Source: Moniliella sp. 'wahieum'
Lineage: Eukaryota
Direction: 5' to 3'
DNA: 64,000 nt
NCBI GenBank assembly: GCA_003971905.1
Contig: RSEE01000047.1
Location: 186,001 to 250,000, forward strand
The notes beneath the pieces were generated by a model that saw only the letters and a list, made by a program, of their open reading frames with translations, did no database searches and was not told the DNA's origin. The first letter of the stretch is position 1; each line of letters starts with the position of its first letter. Below, piece by piece: positions 3,727 to 63,544 of this stretch. A program made the translations under genes and the position numbers.

Positions 3727-4634
3727 TGCAGAGAGGAGAGGAAGGCGAGGGGCGATGGAGTGGTAGTGGATGTGTGGCTGGATGAGGGGTGGAGGTGGAG
3801 GTGCTTCCTGAAGGAGCTGGTGGTGGCATGCAGGGAAGGAAGAAGATGGTATATATAGCCCCAGAAAGTGCCACAGGTAAAGAAAAAGATGGGAGGGGGG
3901 ATACACTACAATACGTTTTGCCTAGCGCGATGGTGGCTCTCGGGTGCCAAAGCATGCATCTGCCGCAGCCAGCAGCCCAGTATGACACACCGATGCATGG
4001 CGCGACATACTGTATCCCCACACATGCCGCGTGAGACCCTTTCTGGCAGCAGCGTGCTATTCCGTATATGCGCCCCACAACAGTGACTATTTCTAAAGGA
4101 GTTCTATGGCTGGTCGCTTGTGTTTGCGGGGCAAAAATGTTACCGCCGAAGCCCAGAGCCGCAGGGGTAATAGACAGGATGATGATGTTTATTGCGCCAA
4201 CAAAGAGCCGCGAGAGCCGCGATGGGGAGACGGGTGGGGGTTAGGAGGGGTTAGGGCGGAAGGGGTGGCCCCAAAGGCGGCTAGTATGCCATAACAATCC
4301 TGCTACGATGACGCGGGAGAGTTTCGCTGTGGCTGCGGCGAGGGTCGACAGCGACTATCTCTTCACACAGCACGACGACTGTGGTATAATCGGATAGTAG
4401 TAGTCGCGCCTAACAGCGAGAGGAGGCGGGAGAGGTCTCCAACATGTTACCCCCGCCCACTGCGCAGCAGACGGCTCCTGGTGCCAACGGCTCCCGGTGC
4501 TACATACCAACTACTACTGCTGACCGGCTCCGGTTCAATGATCCCGACGGCTCCTGGCGCTTTCTCTTTTGCCCATTCCTTTCACCTTATATTTTCAGGC
4601 ACAGCCCATTTACCCCAGATCAAGCAGGCACTAG

Positions 4635-4676
4635 TCACGCGTCACGCGTCACGCGTCACGCGTCACGCGTCACGCG
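4635..4676. repeat. Heptamer array (TCACGCG)6
   Basis: Six exact copies, preceded in phase by a CTAG core. Lies upstream of the ALDH gene. Confidence 0.97.
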
Positions 4677-5444
4677 CCATCATCGAGGCGGATGGGCTGA
4701 CGGAGCCCACCAACAGGAGCGAGGGAACAGAGAAGATCGTCAGCGCATGTGTCGGCTTATTAGTCCACTGTACTGAGCCCCACACGATCTGCTCTTGACC
4801 AGAACCCGTGGCGGCAATAAGCCAATTCAATCGGCTCCGCCACCGGCTTCTGTTTCTCCAGCACAGCCAAGGCCAGGGGCTTTTCCCTCCTATAACAGAC
4901 AGACGCCTTCTCACCGGCGCCACCCCACATATGCACATTTTTTTTTATTCAGAGGTATCGCAAAACCCTTGCGCAAAATACTTCGAGTACACCACAGCTG
5001 CTTCAGCACTAGCAAGGCCGGGGCAGGGATGAGAGAAACGCGTCGCCTATCCTGATACTGCATAATATACTTAGTTCATCTTTTCTCAGTCCCACCATAC
5101 TAGTTAATTGTTGCTTGTGCGCAATCAACTAGCCAACGTTCAGCAGATACACGGAATCATGTTTTCTGTTATACCGCAATGACCTGGCCGCGGTCGAGGG
5201 AAGAGCTCTATATATTCAATTGACATCACATGAACTGCATGAACGACGCGCTCACACTCTCACGTCCAAAAGTGCGAAGAGGTCAGCAGCTGAGGAGAAA
5301 AGTAACATGTATAAGCGACAAATATATGGGCATATGAAAAGACAGAAACAATACCCCCGTCTTGATGAAGAGAAGGGGGGAGGGCGGGAGCAAAACAAAA
5401 CGACAGGCGGCCATAGTCGGACGGTGGTGTGAACGGTTGGTGTA

Positions 5445-7633
5445 TTAGAAGAAAAAGTCGACAATCTTTTTCCAGAGAGGCAGTTGGCGGTATGCCTCGC
5501 GCTCCGCCTCCAGTTCCTCAAGCGTGGGTGCATCTCGGCGGCCAGTATCAATGTCAATGTCTTCCTGCTTGACCCACGAATGGGACCACCAACGACGCGG
5601 ACCATACCAGACAGGGAAGCGACCGATGTGTTTGACCTCCCAGTGGGAACGGAAGACCGCGTCCCAGTCCATCTCGCCAAAGAAGAGGAAAACAATCACT
5701 ACTGGAAGCGAGGTAAGCTTGGAAGAGAACGTCACGGCACGTTCACTACCCGCCATGCCATCAGCACCAATGGGGGCAATGGCAATGATGGCTTGGAAGA
5801 TAAGCACAAGCACGTTACTGTCCAGAAAAAAGGAGCCGAGTCAGTATCACCTCAACCCAGAAGGAAAGCATGCGCACATCAAGAGACCGTAGACGGCACC
5901 GATAATTCCGACGGGGGAGCGCCAGGGAATGAGTTCAACCGGACGGCCGGCTGCCTTCCAAGCGGCACGGAAGCGAATGTGGCAGATGCAAATAGTGCCT
6001 AAAGAATGGCGGAAGCTGTCAGTATTTGCTGGCATCATCAGCAGCTCAAGAAAGAAACGCACCCCAGGAGAAGATAACGGCCAAGCCACTGAGGGATAGA
6101 AGCCAGTTGAAGACGTCTAATGGATTGCTGAGTATACAAGGAACCCGAGGAAACCACACGCCAGGGACAAGGCCACCGCAGGCATAGGCCGCCCTTCCTT
6201 GTCAACGTAAGCAAACCAACGCGGGGCTTGACCGTTCTGTGCGAGCGCAACAAGTGTACTGGAAAAGGAGAGAGGTCAGGGTATCGGAAGGGAATACAGG
6301 GAAAAAGACCGGAAGTTCACATACCGGCTGGCCCCATATGTCGAAGTGTTGCCCACAGAAAGGGATGAAATCAGAATGACTGCGTTCACGATAGACGGTA
6401 ATGCGTGGATGCGGGCATGCTTAATGACGAGTACAAAGGGGAGAGCTGTTGGGGTCATTGCTGCTACCGCTAACCAGCGCTTTCTCGTGAGGGCTGATGT
6501 TGAGGGTGATAATAAAGAGAGAGCCAACGTAGAAGAGCATGATCCGCATGAAGATTTGACGGGACGCCTTCGGCACCGACTTGCGCGGGTTGATTGTCTC
6601 GGCCGCGGTGATCCCAATCATCTCAGTGCCCGAAAAACTGAATGCGGCGCTGACCAAGACGGAGCAGAAACCCTTGAAGCCGTTAAGGAAGGCACCGTCA
6701 TGGTCCCAGTACCGCAGCCCCACTGCATCATGGTTGGGTGCACCGCCAGCCGAGATGACAATACCGGCCACAATGAAACCCAAGGTCATGCTAACAAAGA
6801 AAGTGCGAGTCAACTGATGGTTCAACGTTCATGATGGAAGAGCAAGACATACATAATCTTGAGGACCGATCCAAACACCTCAAAGTCACCGTAGCCACGG
6901 ACACCAAAAACGTTGATAACAGCAATGATAACCCAGCATATAATGACCCACACGCCGGGCGAGACGTGTTGGTGCGGGTCCCAGAAAGCAATGATAATTG
7001 TAGCCGCGACCATTTCCAGCGGAAGAGTAACGAACCATTCCATCCAGTCTGAACAGGGCCAACTTGTGTAAACATGCGAGAACAGGCGATACTAAAAGAG
7101 AGAAGGAATACATACAGTTCCAGCCCATGGCAAAAGCCCCACGCGGGCGAGATAAAACGGGTCGAGTATGTCGAGAAGGAGCCAGAGACGGGAAAAATAA
7201 CAGCAAGTTCACCTAAGCACATGACGACCAGTATAGCATCGATCCAATCAAGCAGTAGTCGAGAATGAGAAAGCCGGGTCCACCACTGGCATATACTGAG
7301 CCAGAACCAATGTAGAGACCAGTACCGATGCTACCGCGAAAGCGATCATCTGGATGTGGAATTGGTTCAGCTTGCGCTTGAGACCAGGGTCATCTCCGTG
7401 AATGTCCTCGTGGAAGGAGGCAGTGCCAGCGGCCTTCACTATCCCATCAGCCTTTCCGAGGTGCAACGCTTTCATCGAGCGACGTCTTTTCAACAACACG
7501 GTCATCTGAAGTGGTGGCCTTGCTATATCAGGATAGTTACCCGGCTGAGCGTGCGCCGCTGCCGACTCGGGCGTGTCGATCAGAGGCGCTTGGTGCAGCT
7601 TGAAGCTGTCCAGCCATTCTTTGACGATGCCAT
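5445..7633 (-). CDS. APC-superfamily (YAT/Gap1-like) amino-acid permease; multi-exon, with frameshifts; start codon uncertain
   Basis: Fragments include LKRKLNQFHIQMIAF, MCLGELAVIFPVSGSFSTYSTRFISPAWGF, INVFGVRGYGDFE, NGFKGFCSVLVSAAFSFSGTEMIGITAAETINPRKSVPKASRQ, HALPSIVNAVILISSLSVGN, EDIDIDTGRRD and LWKKIVDFFF*. ATG 7633 is a best guess that needs a 1-nt correction to give MASSKEWLDSFK. Confidence 0.88.
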
Positions 7634-8362
7634 GATCGATGGGCCAAATGGTGGCGAGGGATGGTGGGAAGAGAAGGCCGAGAGAAGACTGGGAGTGGAG
7701 GGTCGCGCGATTATACAACGACCGCAACGGGCGATAATCGATAAAGTGAGGTTAGAGACCTTATAGGTAACGAGGAACTTGGCTCTTTCCTCAGGCCCAG
7801 ACTCAAACACAAACTAGCCGTACGGCGGGAGTGTGAATGCCATCGACCGTTCATGTGTTGGCGAGAAGATCAAACAGGCGGCAGCACCAGACATTACTAG
7901 TCACTCTGATAAAGGGAGGAATAAAGAATCGTCGCGGTCCGTCTGTGTTCTGGGACGGACCGAAGCTCACGCGTCACACATCACGCGCTAGTGACTAGTG
8001 CTGTGACCGGTGATGCCTCAGCCTGAGGCTAGCGAGTCTCGGGGCCCAGGAGGTCAAATTAAAGGCCTCAAAGGTCAAGCTTCGAGCTCGAGGATAGTGA
8101 TGCATTCTGGCGTTCACCACGTTCACCCAAGGTCTATTATAGCCTGAAGGACCGCCAGGTAGAGGGGTGGGGTTGAAAATTATAATAGGCAGAAAACGTT
8201 CTTGGATGTTGACGTTGAAGCTTTGAAGCTTGGAAGCTTGACGTCGATGAACATTATCGATGTTTTATCGTTTAAGACGTTTAAGCTTTAGACTCGATGA
8301 TTCATCTTGGCCTTCTCCGCTCGGCCAGCCGCTCAGCTTGAGGCCAATGGGCAGCATATCCG

Positions 8363-8710
8363 TCACTAGTCACTCGCGGCCTAAGATCTAAGAGATCCCA
8401 TGTCACATGTCACAGGCCGCAGTCACTACTCACCGGTCACATGGTCACATGACACTCATCACGTGCTTCTGAATACTCGTACTCGGGCTGTACCAGGCCA
8501 TATGCTGTACCCGTTTCTAAGTTCCGCCCGTCGCCCCTTCCCACACTCAGTTACATGTATATTCATCCACACACCCCATCCCAGACTAGAAGGTACCAGC
8601 GCGGCGCAATCCAATCTCAAAAACAGCCGACACCAGTCACTAGCACTAGTCAAACTAGTCACTAGTCACCGGTCACAGGTCATCGGTATATCATGAATAT
8701 TGAATATTGA
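8363..8710. repeat. Cluster of TCA/TGA + 4-bp-core heptamer arrays (cores CTAG, GATC, CATG, CCGG, ATAT)
   Basis: TCACTAG-TCACCGG-TCACAGG-TCATCGG at 8659-8686; TGAATAT-TGAATAT-TGA at 8694-8710; CATG-TCACATG-TCA near 8400. Confidence 0.85.
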
Positions 8711-9323
8711 ATCCTGCACTCTTGCAATCAGAGGATCATTGAACGGCACGTGCGGACGCAAAACTGGATGAAAGGCAATGGTGTGGGGTTTTTGGTAAAG
8801 GGTGCATGTAGCTGGAGTCGGAGGGTGGACAGAAGGAGCGCAGACCGTGGATGGACCGTGGGTGCAATCTTCTTGCACAGATATACGGTCGTCGAGAGTG
8901 TTGAGCGACACGAGCAGTAAGATGTTGACGCGTTGACGACGCGATGTTGATCGTTTTCAATTTCCAACTCTCGATAGATCAGGCACGAAAGTCTCTTTTG
9001 CGTGCGCGTCACCTGTCCCTCCTCCCACTGTGTTACCATTTACCCCGTCTTTGGCCTGACTCTGGCCTCTCTCGTTTTAACGTTTCGGCCGGAGTGCCAG
9101 GCCCTCGGCCAATTACTGTGGAGATGGAGATATGCCCGGCCGTTTGATGCACCGAGCACAAACCGGTGGCAGTGGCCAATGCGGAGTTGAAATCGAAACA
9201 CGTTGGTTACGTACGCCGCCGCCGCTCTGCTGGCGCCTGCTGGCGCTGAGGCGCTGAGGCTGGGGGAGTACTGGGTGAGCCGATCCGATGAAGAGTGATT
9301 CAAGTGATTGCTGATGCATGTGG

Positions 9324-9398
9324 TGCATGAGCGCATGATGCATGAGCGCATGATGCATGAGCGCATGATGCATGAGCGCATGATGCATGAGCGCATGA
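9324..9398. repeat. 15-bp tandem repeat (TGCATGAGCGCATGA)5
   Basis: Five exact copies ending about 140 bp upstream of the DHODH ATG. Confidence 0.97.
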
Positions 9399-9538
9399 GC
9401 GCATGGGCCTCCGAGGCTGAGGCTCAGCGGAGCGCTTACATAATACACTGAAGCCAGGAGTTCTGGCCTGTTCTGGCTCGCTGGCGGGCCACCTTCTGTT
9501 CTCTTGACAACTCTTGGCCTCTCCCGACGACCTGGGCC

Positions 9539-11298: not shown

Positions 11299-11659
11299 AA
11301 AGCATAGCAGGAACTTGACTCCGGGATGCGTTTCAAAACAAATGCAAAACGTGCAATGCACAAATCAAGGCCAAATCTATACTTCAACTAATGCTACGTT
11401 GGAGAGGAATCCCGGAGGTGCCTCAAGCTCTTTCTTGGTAGCGGCGTGTTGATGATGCAGATGATGAATTTTAGGGGCAGCGACATGGAGAACATGCAAC
11501 ACAACCGATACCGCTCCTGTGTCCAACTACGTCCGGGCTGGAGCGCAAGATGTGAGAAGTGAGCATGTGAGGTCTGAGATCCTGAGATCCCAAAGGCCGA
11601 ATTATTAATTGCCCAGACGAGCAACACGTTGCGGACTGCCAGCTGCTGGACAAGGCCAG

Positions 11660-11715
11660 ACACTAGACACTGGACACCGATCATCGATCATCGATCATCG
11701 ATCATCAGTCGCTAG
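11660..11715. repeat. Mixed heptamer array including (TCATCGA)3
   Basis: ACACTAG ACACTGG ACACCGA TCATCGA TCATCGA TCATCGA TCATCAG TCGCTAG, all in unbroken 7-bp phase. Confidence 0.9.
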
Positions 11716-12000
11716 CCTCACTGATTTCACCGGTCACTCGGACATCCGTTGTGGAGGACCAACTTTCAAATTGCAAAAGAGAGAATTACAATTGGTCACG
11801 GGGACCCATGCGATGCATGATGCATGATGGGCGACTTTGAAATTTGACCAGATTAGCCGCTGTTCTGTCCACACACACTTGGGTTCAGCAAGTGTTCAGC
11901 CAAGTTGGACCACAAGCGCAGCGGGCAATGCCCAAGTAGGCAGACTCATTCGCAAACATTGCGTGGTCTGCTAATCGAATGTCGGGGTAGTGTTACTTCA

Positions 12001-12047
12001 AAGCTTCAAGCTTCAAGAAATTCAAGCAAGCTTGAAGCTTGAAGCTT
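12001..12047. repeat. AAGCTT heptamer arrays forming a perfect 17-bp inverted repeat
   Basis: AAGCTTCAAGCTTCAAG (12001-12017) is the reverse complement of CTTGAAGCTTGAAGCTT (12031-12047). Confidence 0.92.
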
Positions 12048-12754
12048 GACTTGAAACGCGTCCCATTCCAATTTTCACATGTCACGCATCACGCGCAAAA
12101 TGTCACGCATCATGCAACGTTTAATTAAATTAACGTGTTTTTAACAGACAGTTCACTACGTCCAACCTGGTCCAACCCAACAATAAGCTCATCCGGTTCG
12201 GTCACTCGGCCACCGGGACCGAGGGACCGCCATTCAATATTCATTTCTTCACCCTCTCGGCCATCCAGCTTCCAGTCAGTCCGTCTGGCGAAGCGTTGAC
12301 TCAGTGGCGCGTGGGCGTGTGAGGTCCTGCGATGCTTTGCTGTGCTATCCACAGTTCCAACACAGGTAACCTTTGGTGGCAGCAGGGGTGGCTTGGTTTT
12401 GATTGCGTGAGACCAGGTGGCCCCATCCGCCTGGCCCGACGCTTGTCTTATGTACACGTGCGATTCGATGAACTGAACTCCCGCCAACATGCAGCATCCC
12501 ACCCAAGTACCGCCCCGGGAGTAGGGTGTCCGGTGTGCGGTTGAAGTTGAAGGTTCAACGTTCAACACGTTCAAGTTGAACGTTGTTGAAGCCGCTGCTG
12601 GGAGACGCGGAGCGCCACGATCTCAGAAAGCGCGTCATACACGTCATGCATCCTCGTACGTCCAATGATTTCCAAGCCCTTCCAGCACCCAGTGCCCTTC
12701 TAAGCTCCAAGCCTCGTCTCGGCCGGGGACGGGGAAAGCGGAACCCAGCGAGTG

Positions 12755-12895
12755 TGATGCATGATGAATGATGCATGATACTTGATGAATGATGCATGAT
12801 GCATGATGCATGATGGTGGCCGATGGGTGCAAGCGATGACGTGCATGACGCGTGCCGCGTGACGCGTGACGCGCGTGACGTCTGAATATCTGAAT
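12755..12895. repeat. Heptamer arrays: TGATGCA-type followed by TGACGCG-type
   Basis: Eight in-phase TGA-N4 units at 12755-12810; TGACGCG units at 12846, 12860 and 12867. Confidence 0.92.
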
Positions 12896-13227
12896 AAAGG
12901 CCGCAACCTGGCGCTCAGCTGAGCCGCTGACATATGACACTGCAGCGCCAGTGCCCTGCTGTGCGGTGCCCGGACAGAGGAGGGCGATGCGGAGGCCGCG
13001 GGTGATGGCAATGCAGCGAGTGCGGCGTCGTGCTTCGTCTGAGGTGGGGTGCTGCATGTCATTGATCAGATCGATCATCGATATCCCGGGAGAACCATAG
13101 CGCGTACCGAGTGCCGTTCGCGGTGGCCGTCGCTGCTGGCTGTTGGCCCTCCACCAGCCACTGCCACTCCCGGTGCCACTCCTGTGGAGGTTGCTGTTGC
13201 TGCTGCCTTGCCACCGCCGCTGCAGCC

Positions 13228-13281
13228 GCCACCACCATCACCACCACCACCATCATCACTACCACCACCACCACCACCACC
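13228..13281 (+). repeat. (CAC)n microsatellite upstream of the SRPK start codon
   Basis: Imperfect CACCACCAC.. run of about 50 nt. Confidence 0.85.
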
Positions 13282-13307
13282 GCAACTGATCCGCTTGCGC
13301 ACGCAGG

Positions 13308-18525: not shown

Positions 18526-19527
18526 GGTGGCCGTGGTGGAGGTGGTTGCGGTGGTGCTGGGCTGCCCTAGCAGCCAACGGTGCGCGCACAGACAGAAAAC
18601 ATTTTGGAGTCGGTAGACGTGCTCAAAGTCAGTGCGTACGTAATAGCGTCCAAGTCGCTCTTTCCGTTCCGCACCGTTCCTTCCGCTGTGATGTGGCGCA
18701 ACATGCAACAGCTCGCAGATCTGACGAGCAACCTGTGTGACGCGGGTTAGGATTCCGCTGAAAGGGGATATGCATCGTGGGATAGATCAGACACGTGAGT
18801 TGGTGAAGCAATCATTAACCAGGTGAAGCTTCAAGTCAAGTTCAACGCAGCACGGAGGCACAACAAGGAGGGGCGGAACAGAGGCGGAGCGGGGCCGCTG
18901 CGGCGCACACTACATCCACACCAACCACACCGCAAGCGCTCGGTTGGCCCAGCACACTACATACTTACGTACGTTGCGCAAATTTCAAACACGTTTTGCG
19001 GGTCCGACGCAGATTGTTTGAATGGGGCCTACTGTGGCCTACTGCGGCTTCGCAAGGTCTAGTGACTAGAGGCAGTGATGTCATGCATGTCAGGCTCAGC
19101 GATGCGGGATGGATGATGCATGGCAGCGCTATTTGCTGGCATGAATTGAACGTTGGACGTTGGGCGCTGGGCGCTGGGCAGAGGGGGTGCCGGTTGGGCC
19201 GCGTGTGGGTCTGCCGCCACACGCCGCAACAGGGTGCGACACGGCACTGCCACACGCATACGCGGCACGGCGGAGGGGTCCTAGCGCCTAGCGCCTAGGG
19301 ACCACGGGGTACGGTAGGGCAAGGCAGGGCAAGGCTATGCTGGCTCCATGGCAGTGATCGAGTGATCGATGATCCCACATACAAAGCCTCTGGCCTGCTG
19401 CCCTGGCTGCCCTGGCCCGGCCGAGCGGAGGGGCGGTCGGAATGAGCAAAGGTTAAATCGAGCGGGATTCGTTTGGACCGCATTTTCTTGCCAGACAGAA
19501 AAATGGATGGCATGGAGCTGCGCCGTA

Positions 19528-19580
19528 TTAGCGCTTAGTCTTTCGCTTTTAAGCGTTGCGCTTTAGCGCTTAGCGCTAAG
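19528..19580. repeat. TTA + GCGC heptamer array
   Basis: TTAGCGC-TTA at 19528; TTAGCGC-TTAGCGC-TAA at about 19563-19579. Confidence 0.8.
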
Positions 19581-20169
19581 GCTTAGCAGCGCTGTAGTGC
19601 CCTCCAGTGCGCTGATTCGACGCATCTTCAAGCTGCAGCTTCACATCCCCTGCGCTTGCTGGTTCCGAAGAGCTGTAGGGATTGGCACGTGCTAAGTAGC
19701 CGAAGAGTGCTACCTTCTGCAGTAGTCACTAGTCATCGATCATCCCTCTTGCATCCTCTGCACCATCCTGCCTCCCCGCCATTCCGTCGCCATCACCACC
19801 GCCATCACCATCCCCATCCCCATCACCGTCACCACCCCTCCCCTGCCCCTCCCGTCTCCCGCGTCCGTCTTATCACCGTCACCCCGCCCCCACCTGTCTC
19901 CTGACCGACGTCTTGGTGTATCTGCTGGCGGCCTCTATTGCTGCATCCCAGCTCCGTGCCTGCCTTCCCCCGTCCTCTCCCTCTCACGCGCCCACGCTCA
20001 GACGCCCTGCGACCGTCCGCGGAGCTTGACGTGCGTCCTGGAAACTTGGTCTTGACCAAACTTGGCGCCTTCAGCCACAACCGTGCCGTCTGTCCCGCGC
20101 TCATCCAGTACGAGGATTAGTTGCCGCTGGCTGCTTCCCGCTTCCCGCTCCCCGCCTGTCCCCGCCTCC

Positions 20170-21967
20170 ATGCCCCTCGCTACCCCCGACGCGACGCCGG
20201 CCACAAAGGTGAGTTTTCAGGCTCAGTGCTGGGTGCCAGTGCAGGTGGCACTCCTGCTGCGTCCTTGTGCCCCATCTCCCACCCGTCCCATCTTCTCGCA
20301 TGTCCCAGTCCCTTCTTTATGCGTTACGCGTTACGCGTTACGGCGCGTCCTGTGATTGTGATCTTGCCTGGGCCGATATACTGACCATGTCGTCTTGCTT
20401 TACAGACTGCGACCCCTTCTAGGTTGCCGTCTCGCTCGGTTGCCGATGGTCTTCCTCCCGCCCCCGCTCCTGTCCAGGGCTCCGCTGCCCCACCCGTATT
20501 TTGGGACGACGATGCTCGTCAACAGTCGGTCGCACCACCACAACCCTCCGGCTTGCCCCTCGTCAAGGCCATGGACGCCAGCACCGTCCGGGGCTACCCG
20601 CCCAACTGGCGTTCTGACTTTTCACCGGTACGTTCTACTCTCAGATCGCGTCTCCCCCCTCTCATCTTGATCTACCCTGGCGCCCGTCTTGGCCGCGACA
20701 CCAGGTATGGTGCATTCACGTACAGTGGAAATGCACCTGCCTCGAACTCGTCCTCTGGCCTCATCCTACAGTCTTTCGCAGTCTGCTCGCCCACTGAGCA
20801 GGCCTAGCCAGACTCGGATACCGCTCCTCCCCTCTTCCAAACGGAGCACCGTGCACAGCTCTCTAGCCGAACTCAATCGCACGCCGCACCATGCTGCTTG
20901 GGTAGATCATTGGGGTTCGCTTTGCAATGAGCAATTCAGCTTTAAGTTGTGCATATACGTGATGCTAACCGTTTCCATTTTTTTGTATTTCCCTTGCTTT
21001 GCTTTTCCCTCCTCTTGCTTCATGCTGGTGCACTACCACCTTTTAGTTGATGGAGACCAATATGCTCCCACGAGGACAGGCCCCAGGAGACTGGAGTGCA
21101 TCAAGTTCCCCACGCTACAATATGGCGGCCCCTCCACCAGCGCCTTCGTTCGCTGGAATGGGTGACACCCATGCTGCAACGCAATCGTCCATGGCGCCTC
21201 AGGGCGCGTACGCCAGCTATGGTGCTCACTTTGGTCCTTACTCGCCGTCGTCAACACGACCTCCTCCTTCTCTTTATCCACCCGAGCAGGGCGAGCGGAA
21301 CTTGGCTCTACATCCTAGCCCTTACCTCGCTGGCAGCTATGGTGCGGCCCCTCCTTCTGCCCCCACATCTTCGTATGGCACGTACCCTCCTTCATCTGGG
21401 CCCCTTCCTCGACCGGATCGAAGGGGGGTGCCCGGGCCCGAGGGGCCCGGGGGGCTAGCACCCTTGCATCCATACGGGAGCAACAAGGTGCCCGACCCGC
21501 CTTCCTTTGAAGGTGGATCCTCGCTCGTTATGCCTCCCACGGTGACTCACAAGCGCCCCAAGTCCAAGATTGACGGTAACATGCGCAAGCAGATTTGCCG
21601 CTATGCCGAGCAACACCCCGACTTGCGTCAATCGGACATTGCAGCAGTGTACCAAGTGGAACGATCGACGGTAAGCAAGATCCTGAAGCAAAAGTACAAA
21701 TGGCTTGCTCTTCCGGTGGCGGAGGAAGCACCATTGGTGGCCAACCGTTCCACCACCATGCTTCGATCCAAGATCAAGCATGGTCGCACTTCCTCCGCCT
21801 CGCCCGGCTCCACCACAGGCTCCTCTATGCCCTCCCCGCACCCAGGTGTTCCCGCTTCCTTGCAGTCCACCCGACAGGATGATGTTGCCCCGGCATCGGT
21901 CAGCACGACTGCCTGCCCTGCTGGATCGGGGGAAGCAACGCTAGGTACAGCGGCCCCCTCGTCTTAA
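20170..21967 (+). CDS. Pro/Ser-rich protein with a CENP-B N-terminal (psq-like) helix-turn-helix; upstream exon structure tentative (introns about 20209-20405, 20628-20781, 20902-21046)
   Basis: The last exon 21047-21967 contains KRPKSKIDGNMRKQICRYAEQHPDLRQSDIAAVYQVERSTVSKILKQKYKWL, which is typical of CENP-B/Pdc2/pogo-type HTH domains. The upstream GT-AG junctions keep the frame. Confidence 0.7.
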
Positions 21968-28641: not shown

Positions 28642-29219
28642 GGCGGAAGCAATGCCTGTGCCGTGGGGGAGGGGGGGGGGGGGAAGGGGGGAAGGGGGTG
28701 TGGCTGGTGAGGGACTGCGGGGAGGGACACCGCGAAAGTATACGCCAAGGTCGAAAAAAAAGAGGGGGCGGAATCAGGTGACGAAATGTCGCATATTCCG
28801 CTCCTACCGCAACTGCCCCCTACCGCCCCCCCGTGGCATCGAGGATTGAATATTGAATGGCGATTGCCGCCAAAGAGCCCTATCGTGCCGGATCCTGCCG
28901 CATTTGGTACACTATACGGTCCCTTCTTCGATTCGATCTACTCAGCATATGGCCCCGCGATAGTTGTGTGCACCAAGTTACCAGCACACCGTCATCTGTC
29001 CTGGTTTCCATCTTGAACACGACCACCTTCTTGTACTCATCGTTGCTAGGTGCTATTGGCCAGAGGGTGAGAACGTGCTTACGTTCCGCCGACTTGTTTC
29101 AAAATTCCCATCGTAATCCTCCCAGGGCCTCCAGCCGCCCGCCAGCCACAACAGAGCTGTAGATCAGATCAATCAGAGGCTGTTGTGGTCCCACCAACTT
29201 CATCTTACGCCTTCGCGTT

Positions 29220-30373: not shown

Positions 30374-30867
30374 GATGGTCCTCTGGGGGATGGCGCCGCT
30401 TCGGCGGCTGTATGGGCAGGGTGGAGGAGGTCGAGTACCTTGTCCAAGGTTCCACCCGTCATCACCTGCGCCGTGGATGGGCGAGGTGGAGACAAGAGGG
30501 ATCCATCGTTTATCGATTATCTCCCACCTGCGGTCAACCAATCTACGCTGGTCGATGATGATTATCGAGATTATCTATCCCTCTGCTGTGCCATTGCCGA
30601 ATGCATCATGCCGCTATTATGATTATCGCCGAGCTAAGGCGCTCAGCGAGCACTCATCGAGACCACAGGGTCATGGTTATTCTGTTATCGCTCGCTCGCT
30701 CGAACAACCACTGGCTGCGGCCTTGGTGCTGCGTATAAGGCTGTGGAAGACGAGCGTGTCGTCGGAGTTGCGACAGACCCGATTGAGGTGGCGGAAAGTG
30801 GCTGTGACCCAGGCGACTACGCAGCGAACACATCGGCTGTCTGTCCGCAGCTCAAAGCAGTGTAGGA

Positions 30868-31304
30868 TGATGCATGATAGATGATGAGTGATGTGTGATC
30901 GATTGTTGATCGATGTACGAGCTGTTCTTCTGTGTCCAGATGTGACATGTGACGTCGACATGTGACAGGCGGGAAGCTGCCTTGTACGGCCTGGACCAGC
31001 AAGCCTGCTGCAGCTAGGCTACGCTTGGCAGGCCTGGTTCGGCCCTGGGCACTAGGCACTAACCGGTAACCGGCAACCTGTCAGGCCTTAGGCTAAGGCC
31101 TTAGGCCTCCCGCGGGCCAAGCCGCGCGTCACGCGCGTCACCGGCCATGCATCATGCATCGGCTAGGGCCCAGATGCCACCTGCCCAGTGTGGCCCAGCC
31201 TGGCAGCACAGCCAGGTACAGCAGACACAGCCCCACCAGGTGCTGTATGGTGCACTGCTGCGGGTCGTCGGAGGCAGACATGATGCATGATGCATGACGC
31301 GTGA
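30868..31304. repeat. Cluster of heptamer arrays upstream of the annexin gene (cores TGCA, TCGA, CATG, CCGG, GGCC, CGCG)
   Basis: TAACCGG TAACCGG CAACCTG TCAGGCC TTAGGC TAAGGCC TTAGGCC at 31060-31107; TGATGCA TGATGCA TGACGCG TGA at 31281-31304. Confidence 0.88.
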
Positions 31305-31416
31305 CGACGTTCGCGGCGCGTGCATCGCAATACTTAAGTCGCGCCGCCCCGCCCCTCTCGCGCCTGCTCCTCCCCACCCCCACCCCCACCCCCACGCGCC
31401 CCTGCACCTATCTACC

Positions 31417-33042
31417 ATGTCTGCAAACCCCGGCGGCTACCCCCCCCAGGGCCCGCCCTACCCCAACTCCGGCTATCCGTCCCAGGCCCCGTCCTACCCC
31501 CCGGCCGGCTATCCGTCTCAGGCCCCCGCCTACCCCCAGTCTGGCTACCCCCAACAGGGCGCCAACCACGGCTTTGCGCCCCCTTCTGGCCTTCCTCCCC
31601 CTAACCACCAAGCCGGCGGTTACGGCGGTGGCTACCCCTCTGGTCCTCCTCAACAGGGATATGGAGCTCCTCCCGGTCCTCCTCAACAGGGATATGGAGC
31701 ACCCCCCGGTCCTCCTCAACAGGGATATGGAGCTCCTCCTGGTCGTCCTCAACAGGGATATGGAGCTCCTCCTGGTCCTCCCCCTCAGCAAGGATATGGG
31801 GCTCCCTCGGGTCCTCCACATCATCAAGGATACGGGGCTCCCCCTGGTCCTCCTCAACATGGATACGGAGCACCCTCCGGTCCTCCTCAACAAGGGTACG
31901 GTGCGCCCCATGGCCCTCCGCCTCAGCAAGGATACGGCGCGCCCCCTGGCCCTCCGCATGGGCACCCTGGTAGCTATGGTCCAGGGCAAGGCGCTGCCCC
32001 TGCCCATGGCCACGCAGCTGGTGGAACTGGATACACGTACCTCGGGATTTCAGTGCCGCCTCCGCCGCCGCACCAAGGGCTGCCCCCTGCGCCAGCAATG
32101 GATGTGTCGGGCAAGGTGGAGCGGATCTACAAGGCGATGAAAGGGTTCGGTACGGACGACAAGACGCTCATCCGCGAACTCTGCTCCCAGCATGATCCCT
32201 TTGTCATTGATGCAGTGCGAACAGGTTACAAGCAGTACAAGGGTAAAGATTTGATGAAGGCGGTGGAGGGGGATGTGAGCGGATGGTATGAGGCGGTGCT
32301 GCGCTGGCAAGTGTATGGCCCAGTGATGGGCGATGTGGTGGCGCTGAAGCGGGCAATGAAGGGAGCTGGGACGGACGAGTCGGTGCTGACCGAGATTCTT
32401 TTGGGGCGGTCCAACTCGGATATGCACTTGCTCAAATCGGCTTACCAAGCCACGTACAGCAAGCGTCTTGAGGATGACGTGTCGGGCGAGCTGTCGTTCA
32501 AGACCAATCGCATGTTTGCCCAGGCGTTGGCCGGGGCACGGGAGGAACACGCGCCTGTTGACCCTCAACGCGTTGAGGCAGATGTGCGCCAACTGTACAC
32601 GGCGATGCGCGGAGCAGGCACCGACGAGGATGCTATCACTTCCATCCTGCTCTCCCGCAGTGATGCCCAATTGGTCGCGATCGCTCAGCGTTACAGGCAA
32701 GTCCACAACAAGGCCCTTTCGTCCGCCTTGGAGGGTGACTTTAGTGGGCACATGAAGGAAGGCATTCTCTACATTGTCACTGGGGCCGAAGACCCTGCAG
32801 GAGTGCAAGGCTATGGGATCCAGCGCGATGCCAACCTCATCTTCAAAGCGTTTGATGGTGCTGGCACCAAGGACCGCGACCTGGTTCGACGTGTGTGTCG
32901 TGCGTCGTGGAACCGGGCGCGGTTCCAGGCTGTCAAGCAGGCGTACCGTCGACTGCACAAGCACGATATCTCGGTTCGCATCAAGCGCGAGACGTCTGGC
33001 AACTACGAGCAAGCTCTTGTCACTGTTGTTGATACGGCTTGA
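31417..33042 (+). CDS. Annexin (ANXA7/fungal annexin-like) with a long G/P/Y/Q-rich N-terminal tail
   Basis: Four annexin repeats: [40 protein letters not shown]. Ends with [11 protein letters not shown]. Confidence 0.96.
31642..31950 (+). repeat. Coding tandem repeat, about 33-bp unit ([11 protein letters not shown]), in the annexin N-terminus
   Basis: GGTCCTCCTCAACAGGGATATGGAGC... recurs at 31642, 31675, 31708 and 31741, followed by diverged copies. Confidence 0.9.
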
Positions 33043-44486: not shown

Positions 44487-44720
44487 CCCCATCTTCACTC
44501 GATTAATCTAATCTTGCATCGCTTCCACGTTGACAGCCCCGAGTCAAGTCACGCAGACAACTAGCTCTCTTTGTTGGTGGGGGGGAGGAGTGCGCCAGTA
44601 GCAAGTAAAAGTAAATGGGGCGCAGGCCTAGCGCGCCTAGCACCACCCATACTCTTCGATTGCGCGCAGTAGAGATGGCAGGCCTGCAATCGCTCAGCCT
44701 GAGAGCTTGAATCAACACGT

Positions 44721-44751
44721 TCAATGTTCAATGTTCAATTTTCAATGTTCA
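44721..44751. repeat. (TCAATGT)-type heptamer array upstream of YOS1
   Basis: TCAATGT TCAATGT TCAATTT TCAATGT TCA, preceded in phase by an ACGT core. Confidence 0.85.
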
Positions 44752-50039: not shown

Positions 50040-51356
<1,317 letters not shown>

Positions 51357-51663
51357 TAGTCCCCTCCCCGATAGGCCTGATGGGATCTGCCGGCGAAGGT
51401 GGTTGGGCGCTGGCTGCTCTGCCAAGTAGGAATAAGGTTGCTAGGGGCCTAGCGCCTGTTCACCAGTGGTGATCGAATGGCCGAATCACATTCATCACAG
51501 TGCCTATACCGAGCGGCTGGCGAGGGACGCGTGGACCACGGAGTATCAGACTGCGTGTACTGATGATCTGCGCGCCTGGCCGGCTCAACCAGCGCAGACT
51601 GCGCTGCCAGGGGCCGGAGAACTGGCGCAAGCGCACTAGGGTTGGGGCATCATGCGTCTGGTG

Positions 51664-51719
51664 TCACACATCACGCGTCACTAGACACTGGCGACTGGCC
51701 ACCGGCCACCGGTCACCGG
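51664..51719. repeat. Mixed heptamer array upstream of the VAP gene
   Basis: TCACACA TCACGCG TCACTAG ACACTGG CGACTGG CCACCGG CCACCGG TCACCGG. Confidence 0.88.
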
Positions 51720-52068
51720 CAGCTGCCTCCTGGGCGAGAGGCGAGTCATGCACGCGAGTTGCTACAACCCTACCACACGTCCGGGTCATGCGTCACGCGT
51801 CACGCTCACGCTTGCCGAGTCCCGACAGTCAGCTAGTTCTGGGGCACGTTGCATCGGGGCCCGAGGCGGAAACCCGAGGCACGGCGCCGCTGTGCCGCCC
51901 CATCGTCTGAAAAGCTGGCCAGCGGCCCACACGCCCCAGCGAGGAGCCAGCCGGCTGCAGCGTGAAGCACACCGCGCAACGTCATCCTCCCCACATCCAC
52001 CACCGTTCCCTCAGCCTTGCTCCCCGCCTCCGCCTCCTGCTCTCCAAGCCGTCTCCCAATCCATCAGC

Positions 52069-54002: not shown

Positions 54003-55817
54003 GACGAGCAAACGGAGGGGAAAGCTGGGGATGGGGGCACAGCCTCGATGGGAAGACGGCAAGAGCAATCGAGGAGCGCTGCGGACAAAGCCAGCAGTTG
54101 ATTCGCCTCCAAACGCCCCTCCAGCACCGTCGCCCACATCTGCTAAGTGCAGCAGAACATTGAACATTGAAGTTCGTTTTGTCCCAAGAAGGGCCATCAC
54201 ATGGAGTACGAATCGTGTGGGTATTACTCTTGTGCCGCGCCTTGGACTGAAAGTGGTGGGCAACGGGGTAACGAGCAACCGTACTCAATCAACCATGTTG
54301 TCCACAATCGCCTGCTGTGGGTGTCGCCTCGTCGTCGTAGGGCCAAAAGAGTACTCGTTATTGTATGCGAGTAGAGAGATCGGCCCGACCAAAGAAACAT
54401 CAACAATCAACAGTATCGAGCGCGCCGAACAAGGCCGAGCATGGAGCATCGAACATCGATCAAGTAAGCGCACACGTCTACCTCGGGGTGTTTCTCCATC
54501 TTTGTGAGCACACGGAAGTATAACACTTTTCCTTCAGCAAATACGGGACAAGAAAAAAATAGGTTCTCACAGGGGGCGGGGGCTGAGGCTGTTGAGGCGC
54601 TGAGACGCGGAGAGGGAGCTGCCAGGGGTTGCCCAGGGGTTACCGTCACCCAGGGGCCTGCAAAAAAGCTTTTAGATCCGCTTCGAAGGGTCATCGATCA
54701 TCCTGCCTAGTCTCTTTTGAAAATCGAGGGCCCAAGGCGCATATAATATCGATCGGCTCCCGGGGGGATCACCGGGATCACCGAAATCGCCTCGAAAGAA
54801 ACGATGAATAAGGATTGTGGTCAAGCTAAAGTAACGTTAAAGCTGAGAAACCCCCTCTAAAGACTCGCGATCGAAAGAGACTTAAGCTTCTTCTGTACGC
54901 ATACCATTGACAGAGCTTAAGATTTAAGGCTGGGACAGGGAAGCGCTACGCCTAAACCGACCCGCTCATCTTGTGCTGCTTGAAGGCCTAGTATCTATAT
55001 ACACTCTTATTACTTACTGTTGACCACCAGCGGTCTAAAGCCCTTCGGCCTTCAGTGACACCTGGCCCGATGTACACAACAGTGCATCGAGGCAGTGCGT
55101 CCCGGACCTTCCACGAGCTTCCACCGGCCTCCGAGCCCAAAGCCTATCATATATCACGACCCATAGGCCTATCGCTCCTTAGCCCTCTGGGCTACCATTT
55201 CCATTCCCCATATCGTCAGCATCGTTAGCTAGACCCGCGACACTTCAGTACCTCTAAAAGGCTATATTTACTCGTTACTCGCGCGATTTTGGTCCCAGTA
55301 AAGACCCAGCTCTCTAAGGATATCTATCTATCGTCTATGTCGCCAAAATGGGTGACTGCAAGCTGGTAAACTTCAGCGTTCAGTTGAACGTTTTGATGTT
55401 GAACGTTGAACTAGTCCAACGACATGGGAGCAGGGGATACAAAAAGCTGATGGTACCGTGATCGTGATCCCTTGGGCCAGCCTGATGGAGATCAGGGTGG
55501 CCCCTCGGGCTCAGGCCGTTTCAGAAACGAAGATGCTGTGGGCCTCAATGGCCTCAATGATGCAGATATGGATGATGTCGATGATGCATGCATGGTGTGA
55601 GCTAGGAAAAAAATCGACATGTCGATTGGCATGGACAAGCGAAAATGAGGCCAATGATCTAATCGATTAATGAGTTAATGGGGTCGAATAGGGCGAGATG
55701 GCACCTGTGACATCGTGTGACGCCGACGGCGCAATTAAGAGCTGGCAGCTTCAGATGGCTTGAGGCAGCACGGAATTTCGGGTGCTCACCGTGAAAGACC
55801 GCTGCACCAAAAGGCGC

Positions 55818-55845
55818 TCATCGATATCGATCATCGATCATCGAT
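55818..55845. repeat. TCATCGA heptamer array
   Basis: TCATCGA TATCGA TCATCGA TCATCGA T. Confidence 0.88.
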
Positions 55846-56253
55846 CTCACCACCAGCAACAGGCGGAGGTAAGCCGATGCGGATCGGGTCGAGTGGATAC
55901 ATCGCGTACCACATCGGGTGACCATGTCCACCTTCGTAACCCCGATCGTTCCGGCACTGCCCGCCAGCGGGACGGTGGTCGCAGGCGGATCTGACAGACA
56001 CCAGCTGGTCGGTTCGGGCGATGTGGCAGGGGTTTCCGACACAGGCGCTGTGCCTCGTGCATCGTTTAATTAAACTGGGCTGTTCCGCGCCAACAGCAGG
56101 TGTATCAAATTTTGCCCCCCCATCTCCTCCCGGCCTCTTCCGTTGCGAGGGGTGGGCGCAGATGCGCCAGATGCCCCTATAAGCTACCGCGTCCTCCGAC
56201 CCTGTCGCCACCACCTGGTTCCCTTGGCCGTCTGCGTACCCCCATCCGTTGCT

Positions 56254-57379: not shown

Positions 57380-58877
57380 CGGAAGGCAGGCGACTCCCCC
57401 CTATTCACTCCTCCCTCTCGGCGTGACCACCTAGCTTCTGATGGACATTTCATCGCCCTTTCTCCCCTTGTGGGAACGAAAGCAGCTGACCCGTCAGGAA
57501 GACCGGAATGTGCAGCCATTGCACTTATCTCTGTCATCTGGCCTTTTCTCCTCCCAACTGCGTGGAGGGGGATATCAAAGGCGTTACGACCTTCACTGTA
57601 GCTTCACTTCTCTTGCATCATGCGATGACATCATACACCCTGTTTCTCCACTCTTCATCTTCTCGATCATCATTCCCTCATGTTTTGTACGAGACAACCC
57701 CGCCGCGCGTGCTGTAGTTTTGGTGAGCGGCTTGATATGCATTCGATTAGACGACCCCGTATCATACGGCAGAACATGGAACGGTGCAGATCCCATTGTA
57801 GATCGTGTGTGCAAGCCGAAGGCCCGGAAATCGGGGAAACTGACTGTTGAACGTTCGTTGAAGCTTGAAGAGAGACCATATCCTCTCATCCTCTTGCCCC
57901 ACTACTACATCTCCATGGCATGTCAGTTCCCCATATAGATTGGCGTGTCCGCGTCTGGTTACATGTTATCAACAATCGATTGCGTCCTATGAGAGTGTAG
58001 AAGGAGCAGCTTCATCATTTGTATATTTCTGTGGACACGACGACGGAGTTAGCAGCACATAGTATACGTCTGAATTCCCTACCACACATGTTACTAATAA
58101 CAGCCTCAAACGCAAGACTGTATGTGCGTACTCCCGTGGGAATCAATAGCATATGCGGATTACTGCCAGGAACACGGTTTCTACTTTCCGTTTCCCCGTT
58201 TTGACCATCTTCTTTCACCCCATATGTCGGAGGGCCGAGCGCTGATGATGAGTTACATGCAAAACAATTCATTGGTCACTGCAAAACACTTCTTATGTCG
58301 ACACAGGGCATTTCGATCCATTGTCCATCTCTCTTTCCCAGTTGGCGTTCCTATGCGCTCTACCGCCACCCAACAAGGTATTTCTTCACATCCCGTATCC
58401 CTATTACATCTCCGTGTCGGGATCCCGGGATTGGATTCGTGAGGAAGAATCCCACTTCTTTATCCATCGGCCTCAAGGGAGAATCGCAGGTAACTCGGTC
58501 GGGGGCCCACCTGGAACAGATTCCATCACCAATATTATCTTCTTCCGCTTTCTCCATTGTGTCTATGCAATGATCTCATCCGTTTCAAAACCTGCGTCTC
58601 CTAATACAGTCCCGTCCGTACCAGTCCCCTCTGTTGGTAAGGAAACGAGTGCCTTCCTCTTCCGGTTCCTCATCCGAAATCCAGAGAGCCCAATGCCTTC
58701 GCTTTTCTACTAATCGCCACTGGTAGGGGGAGGGGGCATGGGAGGAGGGAGGACCGAGGACCCTCCTCCGTTGAATACGTTGAATATTGAATGCAGATGT
58801 GTGCAAAACGCATTTTATTCGCGTCTCCTCTTGTACCTTCCGTCTTCTCCACTTCTACCGTAGGATTACATTGACAC

Positions 58878-59153
58878 TGAGTACTTGAGTACTGAGTGTA
58901 GTACTGATCGATGAGATCGATGATCGTCCAGCCATCGTCACATGCATGTTACGTGCCATGTGTCATACACATCACAGCGGTCACATGTCGATCACACATG
59001 TGACACGCGTAGATATCGAAGGATGCCAGTAGTCGAGTCTGATACAACCTGGTACAACTTACAACCGCAAGGATGCTGGGGTGGTGGATGCATGGTGGGC
59101 AGTGGTACTAGCGATGTGAAAGAGCGGGCGTGTGCATCATGCATCATGCATCA
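58878..59153. repeat. Cluster of heptamer arrays (cores GTAC, TCGA, CATG, TGCA)
   Basis: TGAGTAC.TGAGTAC.TGA, TGATCGA.TGA, TCACATG, and (TGCATCA)3 at 59133-59153. Confidence 0.85.
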
Positions 59154-60573
59154 CACGTCAGTTGTAATGCATGTAAACGTTGCTCTGTGCCTAGGATGGG
59201 GTGGAGGGTGCAGCAGGGTGCAGTGGTCCTGTGTCCCTAAGCGCGAGCGCAGGCGGGTAGGGCGAGGAGGGCGGAGGGCGCAAGGCGTAGAGCACGGAGC
59301 GTTGGGGACGTTGGGACGCAGGACGCTGCAGGTGCTGCTGGACAAGTGCGCGTGGCATTATCGATTCGATTCAGGTCGCAGAGCAGGCACAGGCAGCCAG
59401 CGTCACATGTCACACGTCAAGCGGTATGCGTGACGCGTCACTAGCACGAATTGCTGGTTCCTCCTCGGCTGCGCGGAGGGGCACTGTTGCACGCGGCAGG
59501 CGCACTGGCTCGATGCAGCCCATTTTCAATCTGCCGCGTCGAGCATCCCTGGCATGCCGGCCGTCGGCCCAGCCAGTGCAGACACGGCCAGTGCTCCACC
59601 GCTCAGCCACAGCGACAACAGCAGCCGCAGGGAGCAAATGGCCGACCGGCCCGAGGGCATTCCTTGCAGCTGGAGAGTGTGCCGCGTAACTGAGTAGGGG
59701 AGTACTCGGTCTGAGATCTGAGGACCCCTGCATTGCGCATGGCCATGCAGCATGGCAGTGGCAGCATGCTGCACGCATTGCATAATCCAGCGTTCGAACC
59801 TCGCACCTGCGGGCATCACATCACTTGTCATCCATCGCGGTCACCGATGCATCGCCTGCGGGCGCCAGGGCAGCCTAGGAGCCATGGGCCCCTGCAGCGC
59901 TCGCGCCTACCCCTGCTTTAGCGCTGGGCGCTTGGCGCCCAGCGCGTCGCCTCGGTGTTTGTGGCCCGTCGGACGCCCTGCCGTCGCAGCACCTGGCGCC
60001 TGCCTGCCACCTTCTTGCGCTCACGCCTCACGCCAGGCGTCTCCTCTCGACAAGCACGCACCCCCTCCGCCCGCTGGCGATGGCATTCGTCCTGCTCGCC
60101 CCCGCGCCCTCTTCGTCCTGAGCGCGTCCCCCCCGCGCTGCCATCGCCTTATTGCCGCGCTGATGCTTGCCCGCCCCCCCCCGCCGCGTCCCGGCCTCCC
60201 TCGCGCCCGCGAATCTGGCCCTGACTTGCTTGGGTTTGCCTGGCCTCCCCAGCCTTCGCCCCACAACCCGCCGGCGCCATCGCCATCCCCGTCTCCGACG
60301 TCCCTTTGCCCTCCTCCCCGTCTTCGTCCTCCGCTGTCCACACCCCCGCCCCCGCCCCCGCCCCAGCGGCCGCTCCAGCGGCAGCGGCAATCCCGCTGCC
60401 CCGCCCTGAATCTCCATCATCCTTCCCTCCTGGCTCCCGCTCTGGCAGCCCATCGTTCTCCGCATCCCCCGCCCCCTCAGCAGCACAAGACGCCTTCCTT
60501 GTCGTCACCCCAGCAGCAATTTTCCCCCCAAACAGTCCGTGCATCCGACCCACGCCACCCGTCCCTCCTCGCC

Positions 60574-63071: not shown

Positions 63072-63290
63072 TTTTTCGTGCCTTCTGTGTCTTTCTTCCT
63101 GCGTTTGCTCGGCATTCCATCCTATTTGGCAAGAGCGTGGCGCACAACGCTCTGTTCTACCAAAAACCAACGCTGCCCTATATTTTCGACCCGCTTTGGG
63201 TATCTAACTTTTGTGCCCCTACCCCTTTGTACCCCCTATGTTTCTCCCCATCTATCCCACACTGCGCACGCGTGGAGTTGTCCGGTCTTG

Positions 63291-63320
63291 TGCTGTTGCT
63301 GTTGCTGCTGTTGCTGTTGC
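63291..63320 (+). repeat. (TGY)n microsatellite
   Basis: TGCTGTTGCTGTTGCTGCTGTTGCTGTTGC. Confidence 0.8.
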
Positions 63321-63464
63321 GCTCTGTACTCTTTATCGTCTCCTTTGCGGGAGCCCATGTTCCGTGCCCACTGAAGGGCAGACGCAGTCCCTAATGATGT
63401 GCTTGCCCCAAGCCGTCCTGTTGGCTGTTGGTGTTGCAGGAGAAGTAGTGTAGCCCGCGTACCT

Positions 63465-63544
63465 TGATGCTTGAAGCTTGAAGCTTGACGTGTGACGTGT
63501 GACGCTTGATGCATGACGCTTGATGCATGATGCTTGATGCATGA
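63465..63544. repeat. Eleven-unit TGA-N4 heptamer array with variable cores
   Basis: Cores in order: TGCT, AGCT, AGCT, CGTG, CGTG, CGCT, TGCA, CGCT, TGCA, TGCT, TGCA. TGA is invariant at every 7th base. Confidence 0.95.

Follow-up and report, generated by a model that had tools for sequence, protein, structure and literature searches.

What can tandem repeats have in common when they do not have a sequence in common, and what would bring such repeats into being? The question is raised by a 64,000-nucleotide stretch of fungal DNA (Moniliella sp. 'wahieum', GenBank assembly GCA_003971905.1, contig RSEE01000047.1, positions 186,001 to 250,000; hereafter the window, the whole stretch that was analysed, numbered from its first letter), whose intergenic spacers carry dozens of short arrays of 7-bp units. 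An earlier note, made from the letters alone, had proposed that these arrays obey a rule consisting of a period of 7, a T-N-A frame and a symmetric core of almost any sequence. The rule is real: the window has 80 instances, in 48 clusters, of T-N-A followed by a palindromic tetramer and that T-N-A again, compared with a mean of 2.6 matches (maximum 7) and 2.3 different cores (maximum 6) in 60 shuffles. The evidence base is the assembled sequence of this one 64-kb window together with control DNA, and several of the sub-analyses draw on 20–50 loci each.

The period-7 rule

Autocorrelation at lag 7 reached 3.9 times the expectation for TCA and 4.4 times for TGA, with echoes at lags 14 and 21, so that the peak anticipated by the earlier note is present. 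Exact period-7 runs of at least 16 bp numbered 24, against 0.1 in 20 dinucleotide shuffles, with 13 such runs at period 6, 3 at period 8 and 5 at period 9; among the 123 rows returned by Tandem Repeats Finder, 39 had period 7 by our count. The arrangement TSA-N4-TSA, with the same S (C or G) on both sides, was found 123 times (33.5 ± 6.5 in 100 shuffles), and its N4 was palindromic in 68 of these cases where 2.2 were expected. When spacers of 0–12 bases were scanned, none but N4 approached 123 or had an excess of palindromic fillers; other raised counts were those of N11 (70; two periods) and N12 (63) and, mildly, N6 (64) and N0 (58). The preference for palindromic cores and its restriction to a four-base spacer thus both hold against shuffled sequence.

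The frame proved equally specific. Across all 64 triplets in the arrangement XYZ-N4-XYZ, palindromic fillers stood out for TGA (37 against 1.15 expected), TCA (31 against 1.08), TTA (8 against 0.22) and TAA (4 against 0.18) and for no others, which are exactly the four triplets named beforehand; ATC and ATG, with nine palindromic fillers each, represent the same arrays read in other frames. The diversity of cores had been put at 14 of the 16 palindromic tetramers and rises to 15 in our recount, TTAA being the sole absentee. As in microsatellites, the units are short and stand head to tail, with 46 exact 7-bp tandem duplications and arrays of up to 12 units.

The repeated unit

One circular word, when rotated, can be read equally well as T-N-A with a palindromic tetramer, as an A-N4-T hexamer with one extra base, or as a 7-bp odd palindrome around T-N-A. 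Three lines of evidence, namely where arrays end, the phase in which oriented arrays start and a census of duplications in spacers, identify the last of these as the unit: a 7-bp word (rarely 8–9 bp) that is reverse-complement symmetric around T-N-A, with a free centre base. The palindromic tetramer marks where two copies of this symmetric word meet and has no independent standing as a module; on this point the original description is corrected.

Among 47 matches without neighbours, the two bases adjoining the outer T-N-A triplets agreed with the core in 31 and 26 cases on the left and in 31 and 25 on the right, and the next two in 10–18 of 47, near chance. Because flank identity stops after two bases, arrays end at mid-tetramer. 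When arrays were oriented with TGA or TAA on the read strand, 8 of 23 started at phase 5, the tetramer centre, a moderate preference, as did three of the five exact two-copy arrays.

In the spacer census, perfect T.A-centred 7-bp odd palindromes were followed directly by an identical copy in 15 of 118 cases. T.A-centred words with imperfect arms were duplicated in phase once in 302 with one mismatch and never in 408 with two (1 of 710 in total), and perfect words with other centres not at all (A.T 0 of 59, C.G 0 of 77, G.C 0 of 80; 0 of 216 in total). Both the T..A inner pair and perfect complementarity of the arms are needed for duplication. Viewed from the duplications themselves, 24 of the 46 exact 7-bp tandem duplications were reverse-complement symmetric (chance, about 11%), and 23 of these 24 were centred on T-N-A. 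The symmetry extends to neighbouring unit lengths: three period-8 arrays have 3-bp arms around T-(2 nt)-A and both symmetric period-9 arrays read GCGT-S-ACGC, with no enrichment of T..A-centred symmetry at periods 5 and 6.

The centre base is unread, with a ratio of S to W of 47:11 in duplicated loci and 62:18 in single-copy words. Palindromic cores lay between TCA and TCA 31 times and between TGA and TGA 37 times, as against none for TCA..TGA and three for TGA..TCA, and perfect 10-bp palindromes of the form TCA...TGA were not enriched in the window. Adjacent units share their centre base, and direct duplication, not palindrome formation, is primary, because neighbouring centre bases are equal and 10-bp palindromes are not enriched.

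Location and array dynamics

The window is nuclear DNA from a fungus of the smut/Malassezia subphylum, with compact genes and a G+C content of about 58%. An open reading frame (ORF)-free mask and a codon-usage score both proved too coarse as coding maps and were replaced by Pfam-supported ORFs (21.4 kb) together with spacers delimited by hand from Pfam and ORFs (16,963 bp). About 64 of the 80 matches lie in these spacers, where shuffled spacers give 0.85 ± 1.05, and three lie in Pfam-supported ORFs, each at an ORF edge, in line with the intergenic placement first reported. The settings comprise promoters, UTR-like DNA (UTR, untranslated region) and one intron, coding DNA being almost free of arrays. 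The distribution is patchy: two spacers hold 15 and 18 matches, three promoter-side spacers hold none, and four convergent 3'–3' spacers (1,483 bp) are empty against an expectation of 3.6 clusters, a suggestive difference (P about 0.03). Several arrays lie 50–600 bp upstream of ORF starts, and their TCA or TGA orientation has no consistent relation to the direction of the downstream gene. On that ground two functional readings were rejected, three-frame stop codons (7 not being a multiple of 3) and initiator-like TCA.

Births of arrays are frequent, and their later history has the long tail and higher-order periods that are usual for slippage or unequal exchange. Thirty-four clusters contain one match, five contain two, and three each contain three, four and five, a long-tailed distribution; higher-order arrays of 15 bp (perfect) and 14 bp (imperfect) also occur.

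The principal arrays, given without strand, are the following.
4634–4676: perfect array of 6.1 units of TCA CGCG; predicted single-strand hairpin of −18.7 kcal/mol, with TCA at its tip and a C-C mismatch in each unit
8363–8455: TCA-framed units with cores CTAG, CATG and CCGG and one period-8 variant
8631–8712: (ACTAGT C)n adjoining (ACCGGT C)n, then 2.7 units of TGA ATAT
9324–9398: perfect compound array of five 15-bp units, each a 7-mer TGA+TGCA fused to an 8-mer TGA+GCGCA
11678–11706: 4.1 units of TCA TCGA
11812–11829: 2.6 units of TGA TGCA
11996–12052: inverted pair, (TCA AGCT)n then (TGA AGCT)n; predicted perfect stem of 17 bp, −18.2 kcal/mol, z −4.5
12540–12585: GTTGAAC and GTTCAAC units, centre base mixed
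12755–12815: 8.7 units of TGA TGCA with variant cores, all nine of nine TGA triplets intact
12837–12896: (TGA CGCG)n with a period-9 unit GCGT-G-ACGC and a period-8 unit TGA ATAT C
19563–19577: 2.1 units of TTA GCGC
19726–19745: TCA CTAG TCA TCGA TCA, two unlike palindromic cores in one frame
20317–20342: 3.7 units of TTA CGCG, in a likely first intron (GTGAGT at about 20208)
28845–28858: 2.0 units of ATTGAAT, a symmetric word duplicated exactly in phase
30866–30967: TGA-framed chain with variable cores, and TGA CATG units
31060–31160: two units of TAA CCGG, (AGGCCT T)n, a period-9 GCGT-C-ACGC and two units of TCA TGCA
31279–31306: two units of TGA TGCA, then TGA CGCG TGA; adjoins the annexin ORF start
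44719–44751: 4.7 units of GTTCAAT, near-symmetric with one arm mismatch; no predicted hairpin
51664–51812: units in a TCA frame, their core CGCG or a variant of it; the MSP-domain gene lies downstream
55398–55411: 2.0 units of GTTGAAC, an exact in-phase duplication
55818–55846: 4.3 units of TCA TCGA
58876–58923: TGA GTAC units (periods 8 and 7) with TGA TCGA and GATCGA units
59133–59153: 3.0 units of TCA TGCA
59401–59440: TCA CATG TCA CACG TCA, then TGA CGCG TCA
63463–63546: twelve successive TGA units with cores TGCT, AGCT, CGTG, CGCT and TGCA and a 14-bp higher-order period

The positions first reported for these arrays are correct in nearly all cases. The array at 58878 is partly of period 8, and what had been taken for a GGCC core at 31081 belongs to a TTA-framed AGGCCT+T array with one variant unit, the strict GGCC match lying at 46183. 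The array at 9324–9398 sits about 60–140 bp upstream of the dihydroorotate dehydrogenase ORF, and its perfection suggests that it expanded recently. Two period-7 arrays break the rule (19161–19179, TGGGCGC; 19280–19298, CCTAGCG), each with a 4-bp palindrome and no T-N-A centre. A 13-base word, CACTAGACACTGG, recurs at 11661–11673 and 51679–51691, each time before heptamer arrays, in two different spacers; it may be a chance recurrence or a small dispersed motif.

ORF domains in the window include aldehyde dehydrogenase, amino-acid permease, dihydroorotate dehydrogenase, an SRPK/Sky1-like kinase and UTP10, as well as annexin, an Snf2/Sth1-type ATPase, BRCA2/Brh2, Arf and a VAP-like MSP protein. 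The SRPK/Sky1-like kinase has its closest named relatives in Ustilaginomycotina, at 59–65% identity (Sympodiomycopsis, Melanopsichium, Violaceomyces, Ustilago), one further match reaches 74%, and its ORF start is directly preceded by 17.7 copies of CCA (13229–13281). A G-rich run of about 34 nt resembling GGGGAAGG (28665–28698), upstream of the UTP10 gene, might form a quadruplex. The N-terminal part of the annexin ORF contains coding repeats of 33 and 36 bp (31434–31955) rich in Pro, Gly, Gln and Tyr.

Predicted folding

Predicted single-strand folds of the arrays consist of stems of 5–6 pairs split by 1x1 N-N mismatches, with T-S-A at the tip, and thus have the self-complementarity with periodic mismatches of hairpin-forming expandable repeats. 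Strong predicted folding is limited to G+C-rich arrays, and those of TGCA and TCGA fold no better than their own shuffles. Two inverted array pairs are present in the window (11996–12052, and 31136–31160 with 31282–31306), and in both the second array mirrors the first, its centre base being G where the first has C. Between the two arrays of the second pair lie 121 nt, directly upstream of the annexin ORF; no gene is enclosed by either, and most arrays are single.

Control DNA

In 124 viral-contig loci with five TCA at 7-bp spacing, palindromic cores made up 42 of 1,284 (3.3%). A metagenome control consisted of at least 120 loci (586 kb) picked for a (TSA TGCA)x3+TSA array; their other 7-bp duplications contained a 6-bp palindrome in 23 of 215 cases (10.7%), the chance rate, and the density of T-N-A + palindrome + T-N-A was 0.085 per kb, as against 0.97 per kb in the window. 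None of the 120 metagenome loci listed showed the multi-core grammar, and the few extra matches in three of them (L164, L157, L160) were not significant once the 120 loci were allowed for. Outside arrays, TCA and TGA are not over-represented in the window (ratio 1.08). Heptamer repeats in general thus do not have this grammar, nor does base composition account for it.

Environmental contigs from the metagenome commonly carry ATGCAT arrays with C or G as the remaining base of the unit (at least 120 loci, L125–L244; G+C 0.33–0.64; some of 11–22 units). This one symmetric heptamer may thus be widespread as a microsatellite, also in DNA that lacks the general grammar.

Comparison with known systems

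A search of the published literature outside supplementary files, with six literal 14-base arrays among the queries, found no description of the grammar, and the earlier note likewise knew of none. The arrays fit no described family that we found. To our knowledge, surveys of fungal repeats usually stop at 6-base units. In its available portions, a survey of tandem repeats in Daphnia covers neither this fungal group nor the rule (PMC3152781), and heptanucleotide simple-sequence repeats have been noted in prokaryotes (PMC4692102, PMC4679880). As far as the available portions of these accounts describe them, the prokaryotic repeats resemble the window arrays in their 7-base head-to-tail units, mostly intergenic position, many loci, and a spread of copy number and higher-order periods of the slippage type. 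They differ in that what a family has in common there is its sequence, such as a single fixed heptamer in a genome, whereas the window arrays share a rule, and do so in a eukaryote.

CNG triplet repeats offer a mechanistic parallel. Their strand pairs with itself with one mismatch per unit, which is thought to shield slipped-out units from repair and so to lead to expansion. The window arrays are likewise predicted to have a self-pairing strand with one mismatch per unit; unlike CNG repeats, they have a 7-base unit, six pairs per mismatch and a fixed T..A beside the mismatch, their selectivity is already present at the step from one to two copies, and the G+C content of the arms is irrelevant.

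Mobile elements provide the other comparison. IS10 has a target preference of 5'-NGCTNAGCN-3' and makes a 9-bp duplication (PMC4574204), and mPing, of the PIF/Pong/Harbinger kind, uses a T-N-A triplet with a free middle base, TCA and TGA having been tested, with a 3-bp duplication and precise excision (PMC4561436). Judged by what the available text of these two papers gives, their targets and the window arrays have in common a T-N-A-centred odd palindrome, an unread centre, exact duplication and, to judge from a moderate phase preference, ends symmetric about the centre; the window arrays differ in duplicating 7 bp (not 9 or 3), in having no intervening element and in arms that may have any sequence provided that they are complementary. 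The arrays do not qualify as PIF/Harbinger sites, which are 3-bp T-N-A duplications: the period is 7, identity extends past the triplet and the window contains no flanked element.

Excision footprints of Tc1/mariner and Stowaway elements, as presented in the accessible part of one account, consist of the duplicated target plus a few bases of each inverted end (PMC4561436), and so also place a short direct repeat around a short symmetric filler. Two such footprints were considered and are ruled out by array ends and flanks. With a 3-bp T-N-A target and a 4-base filler, two bases from each inverted end, the flanks should be arbitrary, whereas period-7 identity continues two bases further on each side; with a 4-bp palindromic target and a T-S-A filler, arrays should end on whole cores, which is not seen.

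Origin of the arrays

We consider the arrays to be probably a special class of microsatellite, mutational in origin and a by-product of the way in which this lineage copies or repairs its DNA, rather than a code for the binding of proteins. Base pairing, not protein read-out, is called for because the arms are complementary whatever their sequence and imperfect arms incur a roughly hundred-fold penalty. Two readings had been offered at the outset. A base-pairing process fits better, because arm complementarity is required (15 of 118 against 1 of 710), fifteen cores are used, one array is intronic and the arrays behave as ordinary repeats; nothing directly supports a factor that reads TGA/TCA half-sites, orientation being mixed and TCA...TGA palindromes not being enriched.

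Within this mutational origin it is a fold-back version that we favour, tentatively. A newly made or displaced copy of the word would pair with itself as a 2–3-bp stem with T-N-A at its tip, and the folded copy would escape removal and become fixed as exactly one added unit, so that an array would be born through a base-paired intermediate. Later growth and shrinkage would follow from ordinary slippage or unequal exchange, in which hairpins formed by the arrays may assist, each unit contributing six pairs and an N-N mismatch. Seven nucleotides is the size of classic DNA mini-hairpins, and a 5'-T...A-3' pair can close very small DNA loops.

Several observations weigh against this account. The G+C content of the arms does not differ between duplicated loci (6/36/16) and single-copy words (15/40/25), which, with the folds of the TGCA and TCGA arrays, speaks against a propensity for duplication that scales with hairpin stability; words of A and T only (ATTGAAT) are also duplicated though a 2-bp A-T stem is unstable. 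Hairpin thermodynamics leave the requirement for T..A unexplained, a G-C pair next to the mismatch being more stable. G is depleted as the first arm base, at 6 of 58 duplicated loci against 23 of 80 single copies, a bias that looks like protein read-out, and the fixed T..A inner pair, the bias one base outward and the unread centre together look like the work of a two-fold symmetric enzyme. In imperfect arrays, mismatches at phases T, N, A and c1–c4 numbered 2, 0, 2, 8, 4, 10 and 8 (twelve hand-selected arrays, in which higher-order repeats make events partly dependent), and the centre base was invariant within each of the twelve; that T-N-A is far better conserved than the core could reflect constraint. 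Two different palindromic cores stand side by side in three chains (8659, 19726, 31281), and they count here because duplication of a pre-existing word does not predict them. A preference of the arrays for promoter-side spacers is suggestive, and the rule rests on one 64-kb window.

Part of this evidence would suit empty target-site duplications, the main rival, which we regard as rather unlikely. Here a symmetric transposase-like protein or dimeric nuclease would make nicks 7 bp apart (sometimes 8–9) around a T-N-A target in accessible chromatin and leave an exact duplication, by fill-in and rejoining or by insertion followed by excision, each copy becoming a new target. A fixed T/A at ±1, an unread centre and a preference at ±2 are typical of symmetric DNA enzymes, the unit boundaries appear sharp and symmetric around T-N-A, the unit measures 7–9 bp around a constant centre and the arrays tend to be promoter-side; what a protein cannot do is demand complementary arms of any sequence, as 15 of 16 cores and 15 of 118 against 1 of 710 imply. 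Nor does the window contain an element with terminal inverted repeats flanked by matching T-N-A, a dispersed repeat carrying arrays or, among its 91 ORFs compared with Pfam, a transposase domain, and we know of no eukaryotic superfamily that combines a 7-bp duplication with a T-N-A-centred symmetric target. The available text on IS10 (PMC4574204) and mPing (PMC4561436) does supply precedents, although PIF/Harbinger elements, according to the latter, duplicate 3 bp and usually excise precisely.

The better conservation of T-N-A, the enrichment in promoter-containing spacers with four convergent ones empty, and the arrays 50–600 bp upstream of ORF starts would also be expected of selected cis-regulatory or chromatin elements, either read by a factor that recognises T-S-A at 7-bp spacing or serving, through their A-N4-T hexamers, as homotypic clusters of sites for dimeric transcription factors; some array hexamers resemble known fungal site types. 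We find this improbable, given that one frame is common to fifteen cores with no shared recognition sequence, orientation is unrelated to the downstream gene, one array is intronic, some promoter-side spacers have no matches, dimers could not fill all units 7 bp apart simultaneously, and complementarity of arms irrespective of sequence is not a property of protein recognition. Later symmetrisation, in which ordinary heptamer arrays would come first and be made palindromic by intrastrand pairing with mismatch correction or by template switching, is harder still to uphold. It would explain the symmetric double changes that separate adjacent cores (CTAG to CCGG; TGCA to CGCG), and the arrays are predicted to be able to fold on themselves; yet 34 of the 48 clusters are single matches, too short to fold and already symmetric, and the supposed precursors, non-symmetric T-N-A-centred duplications, are nearly absent (1 of 710). 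Chance, base composition or an assembly artefact is scarcely credible in view of the 30- to 75-fold excess over dinucleotide shuffles, the near-parity of TCA and TGA frequencies outside arrays with expectation (1.08) and the arrays themselves, which at 14–84 bp, diverse and often imperfect, are unlike collapsed or polished repeats.

Implications

Microsatellite families are normally defined by sequence, and here dozens of loci share only a sharp rule (15 of 118 against 1 of 710 and 0 of 216). The birth step of a tandem repeat, usually rare and unobservable, thereby becomes visible and testable. The pattern points to an unrecognised feature of replication, of flap or loop processing, or of a nuclease in a fungal group that includes crop smuts and skin yeasts. 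In practical terms, the arrays would be hypervariable markers missed by surveys of 1–6-base units. As palindromic hexamers planted in promoter regions, they could also feed regulatory evolution. A bolder reading, which we think unlikely, is that the lineage has a dedicated activity that reads DNA by its symmetry, not its sequence, and exactly duplicates any self-complementary word of 7–9 bp centred on T-N-A in promoter-side chromatin. If so, palindromic hexamers, the form that binding sites of dimeric transcription factors usually take, would continually arise anew beside genes, and the lineage would carry its own source of raw material for regulation together with a novel form of site-selective mutagenesis.

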